Assembly (NCBI GenBank): GCA_964531275.1
Contig: CAZHDZ010000004.1
Span: 73,887 to 137,886 of the forward strand
Length of the DNA: 64,000 nt
Direction of reading: 5' to 3'
Origin: an uncultured Gammaproteobacteria bacterium
Lineage (GTDB): Bacteria; Patescibacteriota; Microgenomatia; Levybacterales; GWA1-39-11
A program made the position numbers and the translations under genes. The notes under the pieces were generated by a model. The model ran no database searches and was not told the DNA's origin. It was given only the letters and a program-made list of their open reading frames with translations. Positions 58,192-64,000 of this stretch are shown here, one piece after another; position 1 is the stretch's first letter, and every line of letters starts with the position of its first letter.

Positions 58192-58980
58192 GTGGCTATC
58201 GATAAACATTTCCTCAAAGAGAATAAACTCGTTGTAAATACTGCCTGGATACTTGGCCTTATACTCATATTCTTATGGGCGGTTAATTTCTTCAATATCG
58301 CTTACCCCCTTACTGTAACCTCAAAACAAAGCTCAGGAGAATTAGCTGTTGTAGGCGTTGGAAAAGTTGATACTACTCCAGATACAGCATCAGTTGATCT
58401 TGGAATTGTAGTAAATGACGCAAAGACAATTGAAGAGGCATCAACCCAGATCAATAAAGTTAACAATGATATAGTAACTGGTCTTACTGCACTAGGAATT
58501 GAAAAGGGAGATATCAAAACTTCCAATTATTCTATTAATCCTAACTACGATTACACAAGAGTTCCAAATGGCACAATCACAGGCTACAGTGGGAATACTA
58601 CAGTTACAGTAAAGGTAAAAGATACAACAAAATTACCTCAAGTAATTGAAGCAGGAACAAAGGGCGGTGCTAACCAAGTTATGGGCACTAACTACACCAT
58701 CGATAAGCCTGAAGATTATCAAGAACAAGCTCGTAAAAAGGCTATCCAAAATGCTAAAGAGCAGGCAAATAAAATGGCTTCAGAGTTAGGAATAAGACTA
58801 GGACGCGTCGTAAATATTGTTGAATCTTCAAGCAGCAATGGACCAATACCAATGATGTATGCAAAGTCAGCTGTTATGAATCTTGATGCACGAGGAGGAA
58901 CCAATGCTCCTATCCCAGAACTCCAACCAGGAACCCAAACAATCACCTCAACCGTTACCTTGTATTTCGAAACACGTTAG
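58192..58980 (+). CDS. SIMPL-domain protein (DUF541 / BP26-like).
   Basis: N-terminal TM, then VVGVGKVDTTPDTASVDLGIVVND, GYSGNTTVTVKVKD and a C-terminal QPGTQTITSTVTLYFE. Typical SIMPL layout. Confidence 0.75.
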   Translation: MAIDKHFLKENKLVVNTAWILGLILIFLWAVNFFNIAYPLTVTSKQSSGELAVVGVGKVDTTPDTASVDLGIVVNDAKTIEEASTQINKVNNDIVTGLTALGIEKGDIKTSNYSINPNYDYTRVPNGTITGYSGNTTVTVKVKDTTKLPQVIEAGTKGGANQVMGTNYTIDKPEDYQEQARKKAIQNAKEQANKMASELGIRLGRVVNIVESSSSNGPIPMMYAKSAVMNLDARGGTNAPIPELQPGTQTITSTVTLYFETR

Positions 58981-59058
58981 ACAATGTACCCTAAGCATGG
59001 TCGAAGGGTAACCCTCTACTTCGAGACTAGATAACCTTTTAAACACTTGCTGATGTAT

Positions 59059-59334
59059 TTATTGAATAATTTTTTGAAAGAAGTTGTTGATTCTATCAAG
59101 ATCTTTCAAGGTATATTTTTTTGGAATGTCATTGCCGAGGAGTACTCTGCGAGTTTCTAGAGAGCAAAGTGTGTATTTTATCTGAGTCGGAATTTTCTCT
59201 TCTGGCATTTCTGAGCTCATTATTAACTTTTTGAGCTTTGTTGCCAAATAGCTAAATTTTATTTCATCGTGCTTATACCTATCTATCAGAACAATGATTT
59301 CAAAAAATGATTCTTTGTTATTTTGAAAATCCAT
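59059..59334 (-). CDS. Small hypothetical protein (91 aa) at the distal end of the Rhs locus.
   Basis: Intact ORF. Position is consistent with an immunity-type gene but there is no direct evidence. Confidence 0.3.
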   Translation of the reverse strand: MDFQNNKESFFEIIVLIDRYKHDEIKFSYLATKLKKLIMSSEMPEEKIPTQIKYTLCSLETRRVLLGNDIPKKYTLKDLDRINNFFQKIIQ

Positions 59335-59471
59335 TTAAGTTTAGGTTAATTTAATCGTAAACCAAACTTATTAAAAAATAATTAAAAAAAATCTTATACG
59401 TGACTACGACATTAATTTAATATCAAAAGACATTAAGCTTCCTTTTATTCCGCAGGTGATGAAGGATGAGA

Positions 59472-59864
59472 CTAATAGCAATATTCTTTTATTCCTGTAA
59501 TTTTATTGTTAAGGTCGGCAAATATTCTTATTCCGCCACATGGAAGCCATCCTATTTTGTTGATAACTGAACTCTGGGTATAGTAGGTTAATCTAATATA
59601 AGCGTTTCCATTAGATCTAACGTTATATGTTCTTTGATCGTATGACCAATCAGTAACGTAGTCGATCTCAGCAGGTTTACCTGCGTAAGCAATAAGATTC
59701 TCGATACTTTTACCTTCAAGTCTTTTTTCTTCGTATAGCCCTGAAATTCTGTGATAATTAGCATTCAAGAAGCTAGAAACAAGAATAGTATATAAAACCA
59801 ATAGTAATACTATTGCGACAAGCAATTTAAGAACTGTAGTATATTTAAGTTTTAGTATGTACAT
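59472..59864 (-). CDS. Small membrane-anchored protein (130 aa). Candidate immunity protein for the adjacent orphan Rhs toxin module.
   Basis: Lies immediately downstream (same strand) of the orphan toxin ORF. N-terminal TM (LLVAIVLLLVLYTILV). Confidence 0.35.
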   Translation of the reverse strand: MYILKLKYTTVLKLLVAIVLLLVLYTILVSSFLNANYHRISGLYEEKRLEGKSIENLIAYAGKPAEIDYVTDWSYDQRTYNVRSNGNAYIRLTYYTQSSVINKIGWLPCGGIRIFADLNNKITGIKEYCY

Positions 59865-59873
59865 CGTAATGAA

Positions 59874-60428
59874 TTACCAGCAGACGTTTGGTTTCCATGC
59901 GTTACCTGTAATAGAACCGTCATTCAACTTATACGTACCAGAATAATCTCTTGGAGTTCCAGCTGCGTTTAACACAGCCTTAACTGCATTATTCAAGAGT
60001 TCTCTTGTGCCATTCACTGTATAAACTCCATTATTAGTTACCATTACGTCAACCCCGGTGCCATTCTTGTAGATTGAATCATTTGAGAAAATGACTCCAT
60101 CCTGAGGTCTTGGATCATTAGTCTTTGCTGGTAACCAATTGTACTCATCCGTATTCTCATTTTCAAGCTTAATCAACACTGCTTGATCCGAATTATTATA
60201 AACAGCCTCCCCACTCGGGTCTGACAAATTTATTGGATCTCCATTAGTAAAGTTGTAGCCATTTTGGGTTTGTGGATTCATAAGATCTCCTTCGACTGGA
60301 TCTCTGGAGATGAATCTTCCAATTGAAGGATCGTAATATCTAGCGCGCATGTAAGTAAGGGAGGTATTTGGGTCAAATTGCTCTCCTTTGTATTGAAAGT
60401 CATCTTCTCCAACTCCGCTTAATACATT
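59874..60428 (-). CDS. Orphan Rhs C-terminal module 2: 3' end of the Rhs core (RYYDP...DPxG) plus a distinct ~110-aa C-terminal toxin-like domain.
   Basis: DNA homology to the main rhs gene (62380..62520) and to orphan 1 (61260..61400) runs from ~60428 to the DPSG motif, then diverges. The ATG-bounded ORF is 59874..60350 (MRARYYDPSIGRFISRDPVEGDLMNPQTQNGYNFTNGDPINLSDPSGE...). Confidence 0.65.
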   Translation of the reverse strand, partial: NVLSGVGEDDFQYKGEQFDPNTSLTYMRARYYDPSIGRFISRDPVEGDLMNPQTQNGYNFTNGDPINLSDPSGEAVYNNSDQAVLIKLENENTDEYNWLPAKTNDPRPQDGVIFSNDSIYKNGTGVDVMVTNNGVYTVNGTRELLNNAVKAVLNAAGTPRDYSGTYKLNDGSITGNAWKPNVCW

Positions 60429-60461
60429 TCATATTAATAGAGAGTTGAACTAATAATTATT

Positions 60462-60785
60462 ATGAAGATTTGGTATACTACATCGCATATGGAAAATGCT
60501 TATTTAATAGCGGTAATTTTTTATACAATCCTGGCAGTACTAGTGCTTTGCGCAGAATTTAACTTTGTTAAGGTTTACAGAAAAAAAGGGTTTGAAAAAA
60601 AAGATTCAGAGCATAATACACTAGTTTTTTTATTGCTTCATTCAGAATACAATCTAAAAGCTTTATTTCTTGCATTTAATAAAATTCCAGATCAAGAAGT
60701 AGAAAAAGCAAGAAAAGCTTTCCTTGGATCTTTAGCACTAGCTATAATAGGTGTGTTTGGCCTTCAGATTTACTTCGCTTTATAA
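60462..60785 (+). CDS. Small two-TM membrane protein on the opposite strand between the two orphan Rhs modules.
   Basis: 107-aa ORF with two hydrophobic helices. Could be an immunity gene or a spurious ORF. Confidence 0.3.
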   Translation: MKIWYTTSHMENAYLIAVIFYTILAVLVLCAEFNFVKVYRKKGFEKKDSEHNTLVFLLLHSEYNLKALFLAFNKIPDQEVEKARKAFLGSLALAIIGVFGLQIYFAL

Positions 60786-60793
60786 TAAATCAA

Positions 60794-61588
60794 TCACCAC
60801 GCAGAACCTATTACAATAGTTTCGCTCTTACCTCCATGTATTCCTACGGGTAAAGAAATACCCCCATTCAAACCTACCTCTACAGCAGTGATATTGTTCG
60901 TCTCTAAGTTTTTTTCGAAAGATACATCTACTGGCCCTACCCAAAAACCTAGCTGACTACTAGTCCCATTAAGATCCGAAGGTTTTTTTACATTACTATC
61001 CCAATTGTAATAAACTGATCCACCCCCGCTAACTATATCAAAGGTACTACCCCCTATTGATGTGGACTTCGCCTTGCCCGTACCCTGAGGAGTACTAACG
61101 CTACAGTTTGAATATGACCCAGCCACTCCGACACCTCCCGATATACAGCCGCATATCCCGAAGGCATCTTTGCCAGATGGGTCGGAGAAGTTCACGGGGT
61201 CACCATTTGTAAAATTATATCCATTTTGTGTTTGTGGATTCATAAGATCTCCTTCGACTGGATCTCTGGAGATGAATCTTCCAATTGAAGGATCGTAGTA
61301 TCTTGAGCGCATGTAGGAAAGATTGGTATTTGGATCAAATTGTTCTCCTTTGTACTGAAAGTCATCTTCCCCTATTCCACTTAGTACATTTCCGTATGGG
61401 TCGTAAGATAGATCTTTAATATATTCTCCGTTGCTATCTGTAACAATTCTAATATTTCCAATTCCATCTTCTAAGTAGTATTCACGATTTCCACTACTTA
61501 CCCCACCTTCACTTATGAGTCCATTGCCGTAGAGATAATAATTATCAGTACTATTTGTAAGATCTTTGGTAACAAGTACTTTTTCCAA
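60794..61588 (-). CDS. Orphan Rhs C-terminal module 1: ~130 aa of the Rhs core 3' region plus a distinct Gly-rich ~125-aa C-terminal toxin-like domain.
   Basis: Near-identical to the main rhs gene from DLEKVLVTKDLTNSTDNYY through RYYDPSIGRFISRDPVEGDLMNPQTQNGYNFTNGDP, then unrelated. An in-frame TGA sits immediately upstream of the TTG/Leu at the homology boundary. Confidence 0.7.
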   Translation of the reverse strand: MEKVLVTKDLTNSTDNYYLYGNGLISEGGVSSGNREYYLEDGIGNIRIVTDSNGEYIKDLSYDPYGNVLSGIGEDDFQYKGEQFDPNTNLSYMRSRYYDPSIGRFISRDPVEGDLMNPQTQNGYNFTNGDPVNFSDPSGKDAFGICGCISGGVGVAGSYSNCSVSTPQGTGKAKSTSIGGSTFDIVSGGGSVYYNWDSNVKKPSDLNGTSSQLGFWVGPVDVSFEKNLETNNITAVEVGLNGGISLPVGIHGGKSETIVIGSAW

Positions 61589-61683
61589 ATCTCATAAGCT
61601 TTTTTGCATTTTATAACTATTTTATTATCTGCAAAAAAATCTAGATATGCGCATGAATAAGTTGAAGTAAATCAAAAATACTT

Positions 61684-61935
61684 CTATAAAAATTCTATAA
61701 TACCAAAAATGGATAATATTCCAAAAAATATGAAGACAAACCCAACAAATATATACATAATCGATGTATTTTGTTTAGTAGTCTCGCTATACTGCATCCT
61801 GATATGCAGAAGCTTATTTATTTTTTTTCTCTGTTCAACCGCAGCTCTTGAAAGCTTATCAGGATTAAATACTGAATACACACCAACCATTACAAGAATA
61901 ATGCCTGGCACCTTTGACATAAAATTTTCAATCAT
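61684..61935 (-). CDS. Small two-TM membrane protein directly downstream of the main rhs gene. Candidate Rhs immunity protein.
   Basis: 83 aa. TM helices GIILVMVGVYSVF and IMYIFVGFVFIFFGILSIFGII. Starts 16 bp after the rhs stop. Confidence 0.45.
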   Translation of the reverse strand: MIENFMSKVPGIILVMVGVYSVFNPDKLSRAAVEQRKKINKLLHIRMQYSETTKQNTSIMYIFVGFVFIFFGILSIFGIIEFL

Positions 61936-61950
61936 ATCGCAATTATAAAT

Positions 61951-64000
61951 CTATTTACATAAATTGCCATAAGTTTTTTGAATCATTGCAGATGCACCAC
62001 GCGCGCCTAATCCCGCTTCCGTAGTCATAGTTCCTGTCTTTGGATTTACATTTAATTGGTATGCTATAGGTACAGGTCCAGCCATGAAATTTGTCTGAAA
62101 CGATGCGTCCGTTCCGGGAGAAGGCTCCGCTTTTGAATATGTAACAGAGGCACCAATCCCACCAGGAAATGCAACACCTGCAGCATGATATAAATATACC
62201 CCTGTCTTATCTAGATCTACAAGCGCTCCCACTCCTATGGCTAAGGGTACAATACCAACGCTTACACCAACGTTAACATAGTCTTCTCCGCTAGGGTCCG
62301 CGTAATTTATTGAATCTCCGTTTGCAAAGTTGTAGCCATTTTGGGTTTGGGGACTCATAAGATCTCCTTCGACTGGATCTCTGGAAATGAAACGGCCAAT
62401 GTTTGAATCATAGTATCTTGCGCGCATGTAGGAAAGATTGGTATTTGGATCAAGTTGTTCTCCCTTGTATTGAAAGTCGTCTTCTCCTATTCCACTTAGT
62501 ACATTTCCGTATGGGTCGTAAGATAGATCTTTAATATATTCTCCGTTGCTATCTGTAACAATTCTAATATTTCCAATTCCATCTTCTAAGTAGTATTCAC
62601 GATTTCCACTACTTACCCCACCTTCACTTATGAGTCCATTGCCGTAGAGATAATAATTATCAGTACTATTTGTAAGATCTTTGGTAACAAGTACTTTTTC
62701 CAAATCTCCAGAAACATCATTTATATACTTTTTAGTAAGAGAAGAATTTTCTTTTTCTGCAACTCTCTTACCATTGCCGTCGTATAGAAAATGATACGTA
62801 GGGCTTCCAGATGCTGCATATGTTGCCAATTTATTTTCGAAGTTAAAAGTAAGTGTTTTGTTACCAAATCCAGTTATGTTGCCATTATTGTCATAAGAAT
62901 AGGATGTGCCGTCTTTTACTGTAAGCCTATTGTCATTATTGTATGTAAGAGCACTGCTGGATGCACCCAATGTTCCTGTTAGCATATTCCCAACCTTGTC
63001 ATATGTATAAGCAAATGAATTGCTTGCAGATGTTGCTGCTGTGAGTCTTCCTAATGGGTCATAAGTAAACTGAAAATTTGACGAAGCACCACCACTTGCT
63101 TCTGCTGGCTCAAGCGCTACAGCAACATGGTTTGATCTACCACCATAAGAGAGACTCCAATCCATATCGACCGCTGCTGGCCCACCGGATTGAATAATAC
63201 TAGAGCCACTTCCATTGTCATAAGAATTTGGATGACCGTTTTCTGACCAATCCAATTCATTGTCACCATCTTCAGTGGGGACAGGCTCTGATTCTATTAC
63301 ATCAATAATTACATTATTTGCCGAATTAGGTGTAATGCTAACGGAAGAATAATTACTGCTTTGAGATAGACTGTCTGATTCAACAGTGTAGGTCTGTTTG
63401 ACATTGTATATGGAGTAAGCTGCTAGAAAAGTGTAGTCCCCGCCACTAAGTCCTGATGTTACGATGCTACCACTTCCGCCTGCTGGCGCCTGCAAGCCCC
63501 ACATTTGTACGAATTCTCCATACTGACCGATTTGCTGAGCCAACTTAGTCAAAGCAACCCCTCCATATGTCACTCCAGTTGCCCCAGTTGCTCCTCCCCC
63601 TTGGTGAGAGCCGACTGATACAAGCAAGAATCTGTTTGAATTACTGCCATTGACCGGAAAACTGGAGAGAGTTACGTTACCCCCAGTATTGTGCGTTGAT
63701 TCTATCGTCCCATCAAGCTCGATAGTTGAACCTCCACCGCCCCCAATGCCTTCAGACGAAGCCTCGGCCGGTTCAAGAGCAACTGCAACATGGTTGGATC
63801 TTGCACCGTAAGAAAGCGCCCAATTCATATCAACCTCGGAAGGTCCCCCAGACTGAACTATGGTAGAGCCACTTCCATTGTCATAAGAATTTGGATGACC
63901 GTTTTCTGACCAATCCTCTATATTGGCTCCGTCAACAGTTGGCACAGGCTCTGACTGAATAGCATCAATTATCCAATTATCGGCTGAGTTTGGAGTGATG
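61951..64000 (-). CDS. Rhs/YD-repeat polymorphic toxin (partial; N-terminus beyond the window) with a unique Gly-rich hydrophobic C-terminal domain.
   Basis: YD repeats (YDPLGRLT, YTYDKVGNM, YSYDNNGNI, YHFLYDGNGKRV). Core end motif RARYYDSNIGRFISRDPVEGD...DPSGE. The ORF is still open at the window end. N-terminal region carries a repeated ~55-aa unit (DWSENGHPNSYDNGSGS...). Confidence 0.85.
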   Translation of the reverse strand, partial: ITPNSADNWIIDAIQSEPVPTVDGANIEDWSENGHPNSYDNGSGSTIVQSGGPSEVDMNWALSYGARSNHVAVALEPAEASSEGIGGGGGSTIELDGTIESTHNTGGNVTLSSFPVNGSNSNRFLLVSVGSHQGGGATGATGVTYGGVALTKLAQQIGQYGEFVQMWGLQAPAGGSGSIVTSGLSGGDYTFLAAYSIYNVKQTYTVESDSLSQSSNYSSVSITPNSANNVIIDVIESEPVPTEDGDNELDWSENGHPNSYDNGSGSSIIQSGGPAAVDMDWSLSYGGRSNHVAVALEPAEASGGASSNFQFTYDPLGRLTAATSASNSFAYTYDKVGNMLTGTLGASSSALTYNNDNRLTVKDGTSYSYDNNGNITGFGNKTLTFNFENKLATYAASGSPTYHFLYDGNGKRVAEKENSSLTKKYINDVSGDLEKVLVTKDLTNSTDNYYLYGNGLISEGGVSSGNREYYLEDGIGNIRIVTDSNGEYIKDLSYDPYGNVLSGIGEDDFQYKGEQLDPNTNLSYMRARYYDSNIGRFISRDPVEGDLMSPQTQNGYNFANGDSINYADPSGEDYVNVGVSVGIVPLAIGVGALVDLDKTGVYLYHAAGVAFPGGIGASVTYSKAEPSPGTDASFQTNFMAGPVPIAYQLNVNPKTGTMTTEAGLGARGASAMIQKTYGNLCK

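Follow-up and report, generated by a model that had tools for sequence, protein, structure and literature searches.

The DNA analysed here is a 64,000-nt stretch of contig CAZHDZ010000004.1 (called the window below, at its full length) from an uncultured bacterium, and its upper end carries what is very probably the 3′ part of a polymorphic toxin locus of the Rhs/YD-repeat type that took shape through C-terminal displacement. In such a locus, a full-length gene (the main gene) with its toxin tip (CT-M) and a putative immunity gene of 83 amino acids (aa), I-83, would be followed by two promoterless orphan modules, each made up of a Rhs_assc_core stub, a different tip and a small immunity open reading frame (ORF). 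The sharp breakpoints would be the 5′ ends of the stubs, the points at which core and unrelated DNA came to be linked in the past. As direct repeats of the main gene, the stubs would allow RecA-type recombination to delete or excise the intervening cassette, and such a deletion would join an orphan tip to the main gene's delivery part, switching the toxin. The same repeats could let cassettes, possibly as circles, insert or be replaced, and gene conversion would keep the stubs identical to the resident main gene. The case is made from the anatomy of the locus, the abruptness of its junctions, the conservation of the orphan-1 junction, the concerted evolution of the stubs, the sharing of cassettes between species and array differences that fit stub-to-stub recombination; the pathway of recombination and the direction in which events ran we infer. 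All features of the locus lie on the minus strand unless stated otherwise.

Boundaries of the orphan modules

Both orphan modules are on the same strand as the main gene and downstream of it, and each starts with a core fragment. For orphan 1, BLASTN aligns 61593..61200 without gaps to main 62708..62315 (369/394 identities, 94%), with no mismatch to main 62708..62486 in its first 223 nt (61593..61371). Over the 30, 60 and 120 nt upstream of the junction, identity is 0.33, 0.27 and 0.23, where compositional chance is 0.27. For orphan 2, a single ungapped BLASTN alignment pairs 60430..60208 with main 62507..62285 (184/223, 83%), and identity is 0.26-0.30 upstream of the junction and 0.79-0.85 downstream. 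Column by column, identity at both junctions rises from chance to high within one base. A first-pass annotation of this DNA had placed the start of near-identity of orphan 1 at 61596 and the start of orphan-2 homology at about 60428; the near-identity and the abrupt starts are borne out, but the positions are 61593, 3 nt away, and 60430. Pairwise alignment, in which gradual decay of identity was the alternative to an abrupt change, gave an abrupt change, from 0.23-0.33 upstream to 1.00 (orphan 1) or 0.79-0.85 (orphan 2) downstream.

Comparison assemblies were found in three ways: L001-L010 by exact look-up of I-130, the 130-aa protein encoded after orphan 2, L011 by a genome scan, and L089 by look-up of P0001, a homologue of orphan 1. 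L089 is a 66.8-kb contig with the whole locus, and L001 has the same array. Housekeeping genes are 100% identical among L001, L011 and L089 and 80-88% identical to those of the window. The window array reads main–CT-M–I-83–spacer, then long stub–CT-B–107 aa (inverted), then stub–orphan-2 tip–I-130, then a 91-aa ORF. That of L089 reads main (1964 aa)–CT-M–I-83–spacer, then long stub–CT-X–I-127, stub–CT-A–I-116, stub–CT-B–107 aa (inverted), stub–orphan-2 tip–immunity and the 91-aa ORF. In L011, the order is main–GIY-YIG tip–leucine-rich-repeat protein–103 aa, then short stub–CT-M–I-83–spacer, then long stub–CT-Z–I-111. Exact-protein look-ups of orphan 1, orphan 2, I-83 (with two possible starts) and the RND transporter gave no match, nor did scans of metagenome contigs with the pattern of the orphan-1 junction (J_long) and with a core pattern.

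Five distinct junction types were found, which in main-gene coordinates lie at 62708 (long, J_long), about 62539 (A), 62518 (B, J_B), 62507 (orphan 2, J_o2) and about 62482 (M, J_M). Four of the five fall within about 60 nt of the first TIGR03696 codon (62520-62518). The first-pass annotation had missed this cluster as well as the mosaic structure of orphan 1 described below, and it had not explicitly stated the TGA at the orphan-2 junction.

Both window junctions recur in other assemblies: J_o2 is identical in at least nine independent contigs from different samples and assemblers, and J_long is colinear in two further assemblies, L011 and L089. Misassembly, which the annotation had named as a way in which the junctions could prove false, is therefore unlikely. 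An assembly artefact, with repeats collapsed or mis-joined to give false junctions or a false 100% identity, would be in keeping with the short-read contigs L001-L009 and L090, all of which break inside a stub, so the repeat does trouble assemblers. The pattern of a stub equal to the main gene is nevertheless present in three independent assemblies, and this explanation is extremely improbable.

Age of the orphan-1 junction and evolution of its stub

The orphan-1 junction (spacer, then TATGA followed by GAT) is colinear at positions 4387-4392 of L011 and 7747-7752 of L089, with I-83 and the spacer upstream in both. Judging from this colinearity, the junction is old. Each of the three genomes has an identical tract shared between the stub and its own main gene, of 223 nt in the window, 355 nt in L089 and 199/200 nt in L011; between genomes, the same stub segments are only about 88% identical. 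Given 18% divergence just downstream, the probability of 223 consecutive matches is about 4e-20. One old junction together with three genome-specific perfect repeats cannot be explained by recent duplication and can be explained by gene conversion or repeated homologous exchange, which indicates concerted evolution of the orphan-1 stub and the resident main gene through gene conversion.

The high identity of orphan 1 had been put down to recent duplication or gene conversion. The second proposal agrees with stubs that match the resident main gene in three genomes. The first would have a recent tandem duplication of the main-gene 3′ end, followed by divergence, leave the orphans as young paralogous fragments, and the 223-nt perfect repeat (61593..61371 and 62708..62486) speaks for it. 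The three-genome comparison largely refutes this account: the same junction, I-83 and spacer are present in L011 and L089, where the stubs match their own main gene and not that of the window. Moreover, the tips after DPSG are unrelated between copies, and identity to the main gene falls abruptly at 61370 in orphan 1, the rest of the stub being a mosaic of other copies. Recent duplication is thus very improbable. In the mosaic, 61593..61371 is main-like, 61297..61230 is identical to orphan 2, and the sequence from 61257 is identical to cassette B of L089. The 3′ part of the core occurs as one variant in the X, A and B stubs of L001 and as another in orphans 1 and 2 of the window.

Probable exchange of cassettes between genomes

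Identity between the window and L089 steps exactly at the borders of core and cassette. It is about 88% in the main core, about 97.5% in CT-M, I-83 and the spacer (62300-61603), and 84-89% in the long stub. Further on, 2204 nt of the window (61257-59054; L001 2175-4378) have 3 mismatches against L001 and L089, an identity of 99.9%. The non-coding spacer is also highly identical, which makes selection an unlikely sole cause. Most probably, cassettes passed between these species after they had split, at two different times, and the 2.2-kb block points to a recent inter-species transfer of orphan cassettes.

The cassettes also occupy different positions in different arrays. The main gene carries CT-M as its tip in the window and L089, but L011 has CT-M in an orphan. 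After the long stub comes CT-B in the window, CT-X in L089 and CT-Z in L011. The array of the window equals that of L089 minus CT-X, I-127, A, I-116 and J_B, that is, minus two cassettes. A single crossover that joined the long stub with the B stub, within 61403-61258 of the window, would produce this difference by deletion or excision. L011 and L089 have identical backbones and wholly different toxin arrays, a contrast that points to replacement of the entire array region at strain level. In the same two contigs, identity is only 79% for the 91-aa ORF and about 80% for the SIMPL gene at its 3′ end.

Stop codons, start codons and expression of the orphans

In-frame stops had been proposed as a mark of the junctions. 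At J_long, an in-frame TGA stands opposite a main-gene GGA and is followed by GAT (Asp) of DLEKV and then by TTG at 61588; the annotation had rightly seen the in-frame stop at the junction but had placed it directly before the shared TTG (Leu). At J_o2, an in-frame TGA again faces a main-gene GGA, and the first canonical start is, as annotated, the ATG at 60350 (MRARYYDP). A stop at the junction codon occurs in only two of the five junction types (long and orphan 2). At junctions A, B and M, the first in-frame stop lies 7, 17 and 20 codons upstream, and at J_B and J_M there is an in-frame ATG two codons before the homology: J_B (L001 2013-2030) reads ATGCGC followed across the junction by GACCC, and J_M (L011 3492-3500) reads ATGCAG followed by GGAGATGAC. 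With a stop frequency of 0.07-0.10 per position in local intergenic DNA, stops at two of five junctions correspond to a binomial P≈0.05. Stops are therefore no general mark of junctions, and it is best to regard the junction TGAs as chance features of the flank outside the homology. A 1-nt deletion (TGGA to TGA) was weighed as the origin of both stops; it would add only a little homology (5 nt at J_o2, 5/7 nt at J_long), too little for a decision. At J_B, CTACATGCGCG repeats, over 11 nt, the core segment that codes for YMRAR.

If TGA were a sense codon (genetic code 25 or 4, with UGA read as Gly or Trp), the orphan ORFs would extend upstream, that of orphan 1 from the ATG of MQKSL-G-DLEKV. Both TGAs align with main-gene Gly GGA codons, and an in-frame ATG does lie five codons upstream of the orphan-1 TGA. 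However, the genes of the window are long and intact under code 11, in which TGA terminates 18 of the 59 long ORFs and is internal to none, homology stops at the TGA, and in L011 the upstream ATG is missing, in L089 out of frame. This genome uses UGA as an ordinary stop codon, and the junction TGAs are accordingly true stops; the code 25 or 4 reading is refuted by TGA usage in the window ORFs, and its probability is vanishingly small.

The orphans could also be independently translated intracellular toxin/antitoxin-like modules, with starts at or near the junction, rather than silent spares. A TTG lies two codons after the orphan-1 stop, orphan 2 has its ATG at 60350, J_B and J_M have their in-frame ATG, main and orphan Rhs-CTs of Salmonella offer a precedent (PMC7043789), and there is a weak −35/−10-like site at 61635..61608. 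Against these stand an orphan-1 TTG that is not conserved (CTA in L011 and L089), the lack of an obvious Shine-Dalgarno sequence by eye, and a promoter and terminator scan that showed no enrichment over shuffles, with 16 promoter-like sites found against 14.4 expected. Independent translation, which has a small but real probability, would be compatible with the displacement model and not exclusive of it.

Domains, tips and putative immunity genes

In the visible part of the main protein, RHS/YD repeats are matched by PF05593 RHS_repeat (E=4.6e-9) and TIGR01643 (E=6.6e-5), and TIGR03696 Rhs_assc_core lies at aa 494-571. TIGR03696 is found in all three copies (main 65.8, orphan 1 73.6 and orphan 2 68.9 bits; cutoff 32.5), the orphan-1 copy being complete and that of orphan 2 starting at model position 15. 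The motif at the boundary of core and tip is a DPSG[EK] variant, SINYADPSGE in the main gene, PVNFSDPSGK in orphan 1 and PINLSDPSGE in orphan 2; compared with PxxxxDPxGL, E or K takes the place of the final L, and the main copy has S for P. The three C-terminal tips downstream of this motif are mutually unrelated. The earlier description of the module ends as precise cassette boundaries, not decayed pseudogenes, is upheld by the intact frames, by Rhs_assc_core in all three copies and by tips and immunity genes that recur elsewhere in other array positions. The main ortholog in L089 is complete, at 1964 aa, and has many RHS_repeat/TEN_YD-shell matches, the same CT-M and a hydrophobic N-terminal segment, seen by eye, that is predicted to be a signal or transmembrane (TM) segment. 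The gene table of L089 gives no PAAR/VgrG Pfam match for the genes just upstream of its main gene.

No Pfam or NCBIfam family was found for CT-M, CT-B, the orphan-2 tip, I-83, the 107-aa ORF, I-130 or the 91-aa ORF. CT-B has a weak match to CT-A at the N-terminus alone (E=0.007), and the 107-aa ORF has no similarity to I-116. By eye, I-130 appears related to I-127, the neighbour of CT-X. The main tip of L011 (1716-3084 region) has a GIY-YIG nuclease domain (Pfam E=1.5e-6), which confirms the toxin-cassette nature of the locus. A 320-aa leucine-rich-repeat protein follows this tip, at the position of an immunity gene. Orphan 2 is followed on the same strand by the putative immunity gene I-130; the corresponding ORF is called as 97 aa, not 130 aa, in L089 (11645-11938) and L090 (3682-3975), so some strains may have an immunity gene that is truncated or re-started. 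By the sequence of the locus, the tips would be toxic, the small ORFs would confer immunity and the orphans would be silent.

Evidence against C-terminal displacement and the origin of the junctions

Several observations weigh against C-terminal displacement as set out above. The 5′ end of the main gene lies beyond 64000, outside the window. No full-length gene with CT-B or the orphan-2 tip was found. Orphan 1 has no same-strand immunity ORF, its sole candidate being the opposite-strand 107-aa ORF; should this ORF provide CT-B immunity, gene and toxin would point in opposite directions. The reverse event, an insertion, fits the two-cassette difference equally well, and either genome could have been donor or recipient. 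Finally, the pentamer TATGA is common to both window junctions, GGA has turned to TGA at both, and AA.AAGCTTAT adjoins two junctions at different core positions, long and A (window 61595-61606; L001 959-967; L089 7738-7749); the long junction of L011 has AAGCATAT in place of AA.AAGCTTAT. Simple illegitimate joining explains neither the shared TATGA nor the AAGCTTAT pattern.

TATGA and AA.AAGCTTAT could be hints that the junctions are products of a dedicated joining process, and that some of them (J_B and J_M) evolved an in-frame ATG, so that Rhs_assc_core and tip would be made alone, as addiction modules. This proposal is quite improbable. If it were true, cassettes would, as addiction modules, pass more readily from species to species, a spread suggested by the 2.2-kb block with its 99.9% identity.

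Layout of the locus

The coordinates of the features are given in Table 1. The 107-aa ORF has hydrophobic segments at its N- and C-terminus. The main gene contains an internal direct repeat (63098-63337 and 63761-64000, spacing 663 nt, 77% identical over the 240-nt segments compared), which encodes units of ~220 aa between the YD shell and the core; a 2207-aa relative in L012 has three such units. ARAGORN found no tRNA or tmRNA genes in the window, and no Rfam families were found within 58900-64000.

Table 1. Features of the Rhs locus in window coordinates, with the evidence or related observation for each.
Feature	Position	Strand	Remarks
Main Rhs/YD-repeat toxin gene, 3′ part	61951..64000	-	PF05593, TIGR03696, TIGR01643
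Main core region common with the orphans	62708..62315	-	BLASTN
Main DPSGE motif	62298..62284	-	
Main toxin tip CT-M	about 62286..61951	-	Same CT-M in L089 ortholog
I-83, 83-aa ORF with two TM segments, putative CT-M immunity gene	61684..61935	-	Adjoins CT-M in L011 (4047-4298) and L089
Non-coding spacer after I-83	61683..61595	-	
J_long, orphan-1 junction, TGA opposite main GGA 62709-62707	61592..61594	-	Homology from 61593
Orphan-1 ORF	61588..60794	-	ORF list
Orphan-1 core stub, direct repeat of main 62708..62315	61200..61593	-	TIGR03696 at aa 63-140
Orphan-1 toxin tip CT-B, Gly-rich	60794..61199	-	Stop TGA 60796..60794; identical to cassette B of L001/L089
107-aa TM ORF between orphans 1 and 2	60462..60785	+	Called as gene in all related contigs
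J_o2, orphan-2 junction, TGA opposite main GGA 62508-62506	60429..60431	-	Homology from 60430; identical in L001-L009 and L089
Orphan-2 core stub, 83% identical to main 62507..62285	60208..60430	-	TIGR03696 from model position 15
Orphan-2 ORF from ATG 60350..60348	60350..59874	-	ORF list
Orphan-2 toxin tip	59874..60207	-	Looks related by eye to CT-X of L001/L089
I-130, putative orphan-2 immunity gene, N-terminal TM segment	59472..59864	-	Exact protein on 14 contigs
91-aa ORF	59059..59334		Within 2204-nt shared block
2204-nt block: CT-B, 107-aa ORF, orphan 2, I-130, 91-aa ORF	59054..61257	-	3 mismatches against L001/L089

Relation to known systems

The layout has precedents in several families. 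Jackson et al. (2009) set out the displacement model and described core fragments of variable length; attached and dissociated cores within a strain were, in their words, “always identical” (PMC2935791). Poole et al. (2011) described orphans without translation initiation signals (PMC3150448), Koskiniemi et al. (2014) demonstrated recombination between main and orphan genes over 522 bp at 95% identity in Salmonella (PMC3967940), and Starsta et al. (2020) showed that expression of such orphans from internal starts is possible too (PMC7043789). A tblastn survey of 78 related loci from the genome scan, drawn from many phyla, found extra copies of the core end in 16, of which about 9 are truncated copies downstream of a full one. 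The truncated downstream copies are in Acidobacteriota, Paenibacillus, Ruminococcus, Woeseiaceae and Bathyarchaeia metagenome-assembled genomes, and their stubs start at ~ query residues 430-525.

As in enterobacterial rhs loci (PMC2935791), a full gene is followed by same-strand strings of core fragment and tip, with or without a small ORF, the core fragments vary in length and are identical to the resident core, tips recur at different positions and in different strains, and the layout fits excision or insertion via core homology. The present locus differs in its host, a low-GC (38%) uncultured bacterium, in a predicted N-terminal signal or TM segment (by eye, in the L089 ortholog) rather than a link to PAAR/VgrG, in the extra ~220-aa repeats between YD shell and core, and in DPSG[EK] rather than DPxGL; cross-species near-identity of cassettes and concerted evolution are seen directly here. 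With the rhs-main / rhs-CT-orphan pair of Salmonella Typhimurium LT2 (PMC3967940, PMC7043789), it has in common a shared core (394 bp at 94% here, 223 bp of it perfect, against 522 bp at 95% in Salmonella) and an orphan, here possibly without export and initiation signals of its own, which recombination would fuse to the main delivery part. Recombination, toxicity and internal promoters were demonstrated experimentally in Salmonella, whereas the present locus is known from sequence alone; it has two orphans, and one putative immunity gene is inverted.

Arrays of silent tip and immunity modules are also found in the cdiA-CT/cdiI arrays of contact-dependent inhibition (CDI) systems (PMC3150448) and in Neisseria MafB cassettes (PMC4287609). 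In both, as here, a short conserved pre-toxin segment would serve as recombination handle, VENN there and Rhs_assc_core here. The delivery families differ, being two-partner secretion CdiA or MafB, as does the conserved motif. WapA-type proteins of Bacillus subtilis are Sec-exported YD-repeat toxins with an N-terminal signal, Rhs_assc_core, a polymorphic C-terminal toxin and an adjacent immunity gene. The present locus shares each of these, from YD-repeat protein and predicted N-terminal signal sequence to Rhs_assc_core, polymorphic, putatively toxic C-terminal tip and adjacent putative immunity gene; it differs in that the orphan array is its focus. WapA homologues are discussed in PMC12704120.

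The feature is thus real but ordinary, an instance of the known system of C-terminal displacement and orphan modules with no new mechanism. It is a clean natural example of the evolution of a polymorphic toxin array outside the enterobacterial models. The old junction, the gene-converted stubs, the shared cassettes and the two-cassette difference support the model of Jackson et al. and Koskiniemi et al., and the locus shows toxin–immunity cassettes that are nearly unchanged between genomes differing by 12-20% elsewhere.

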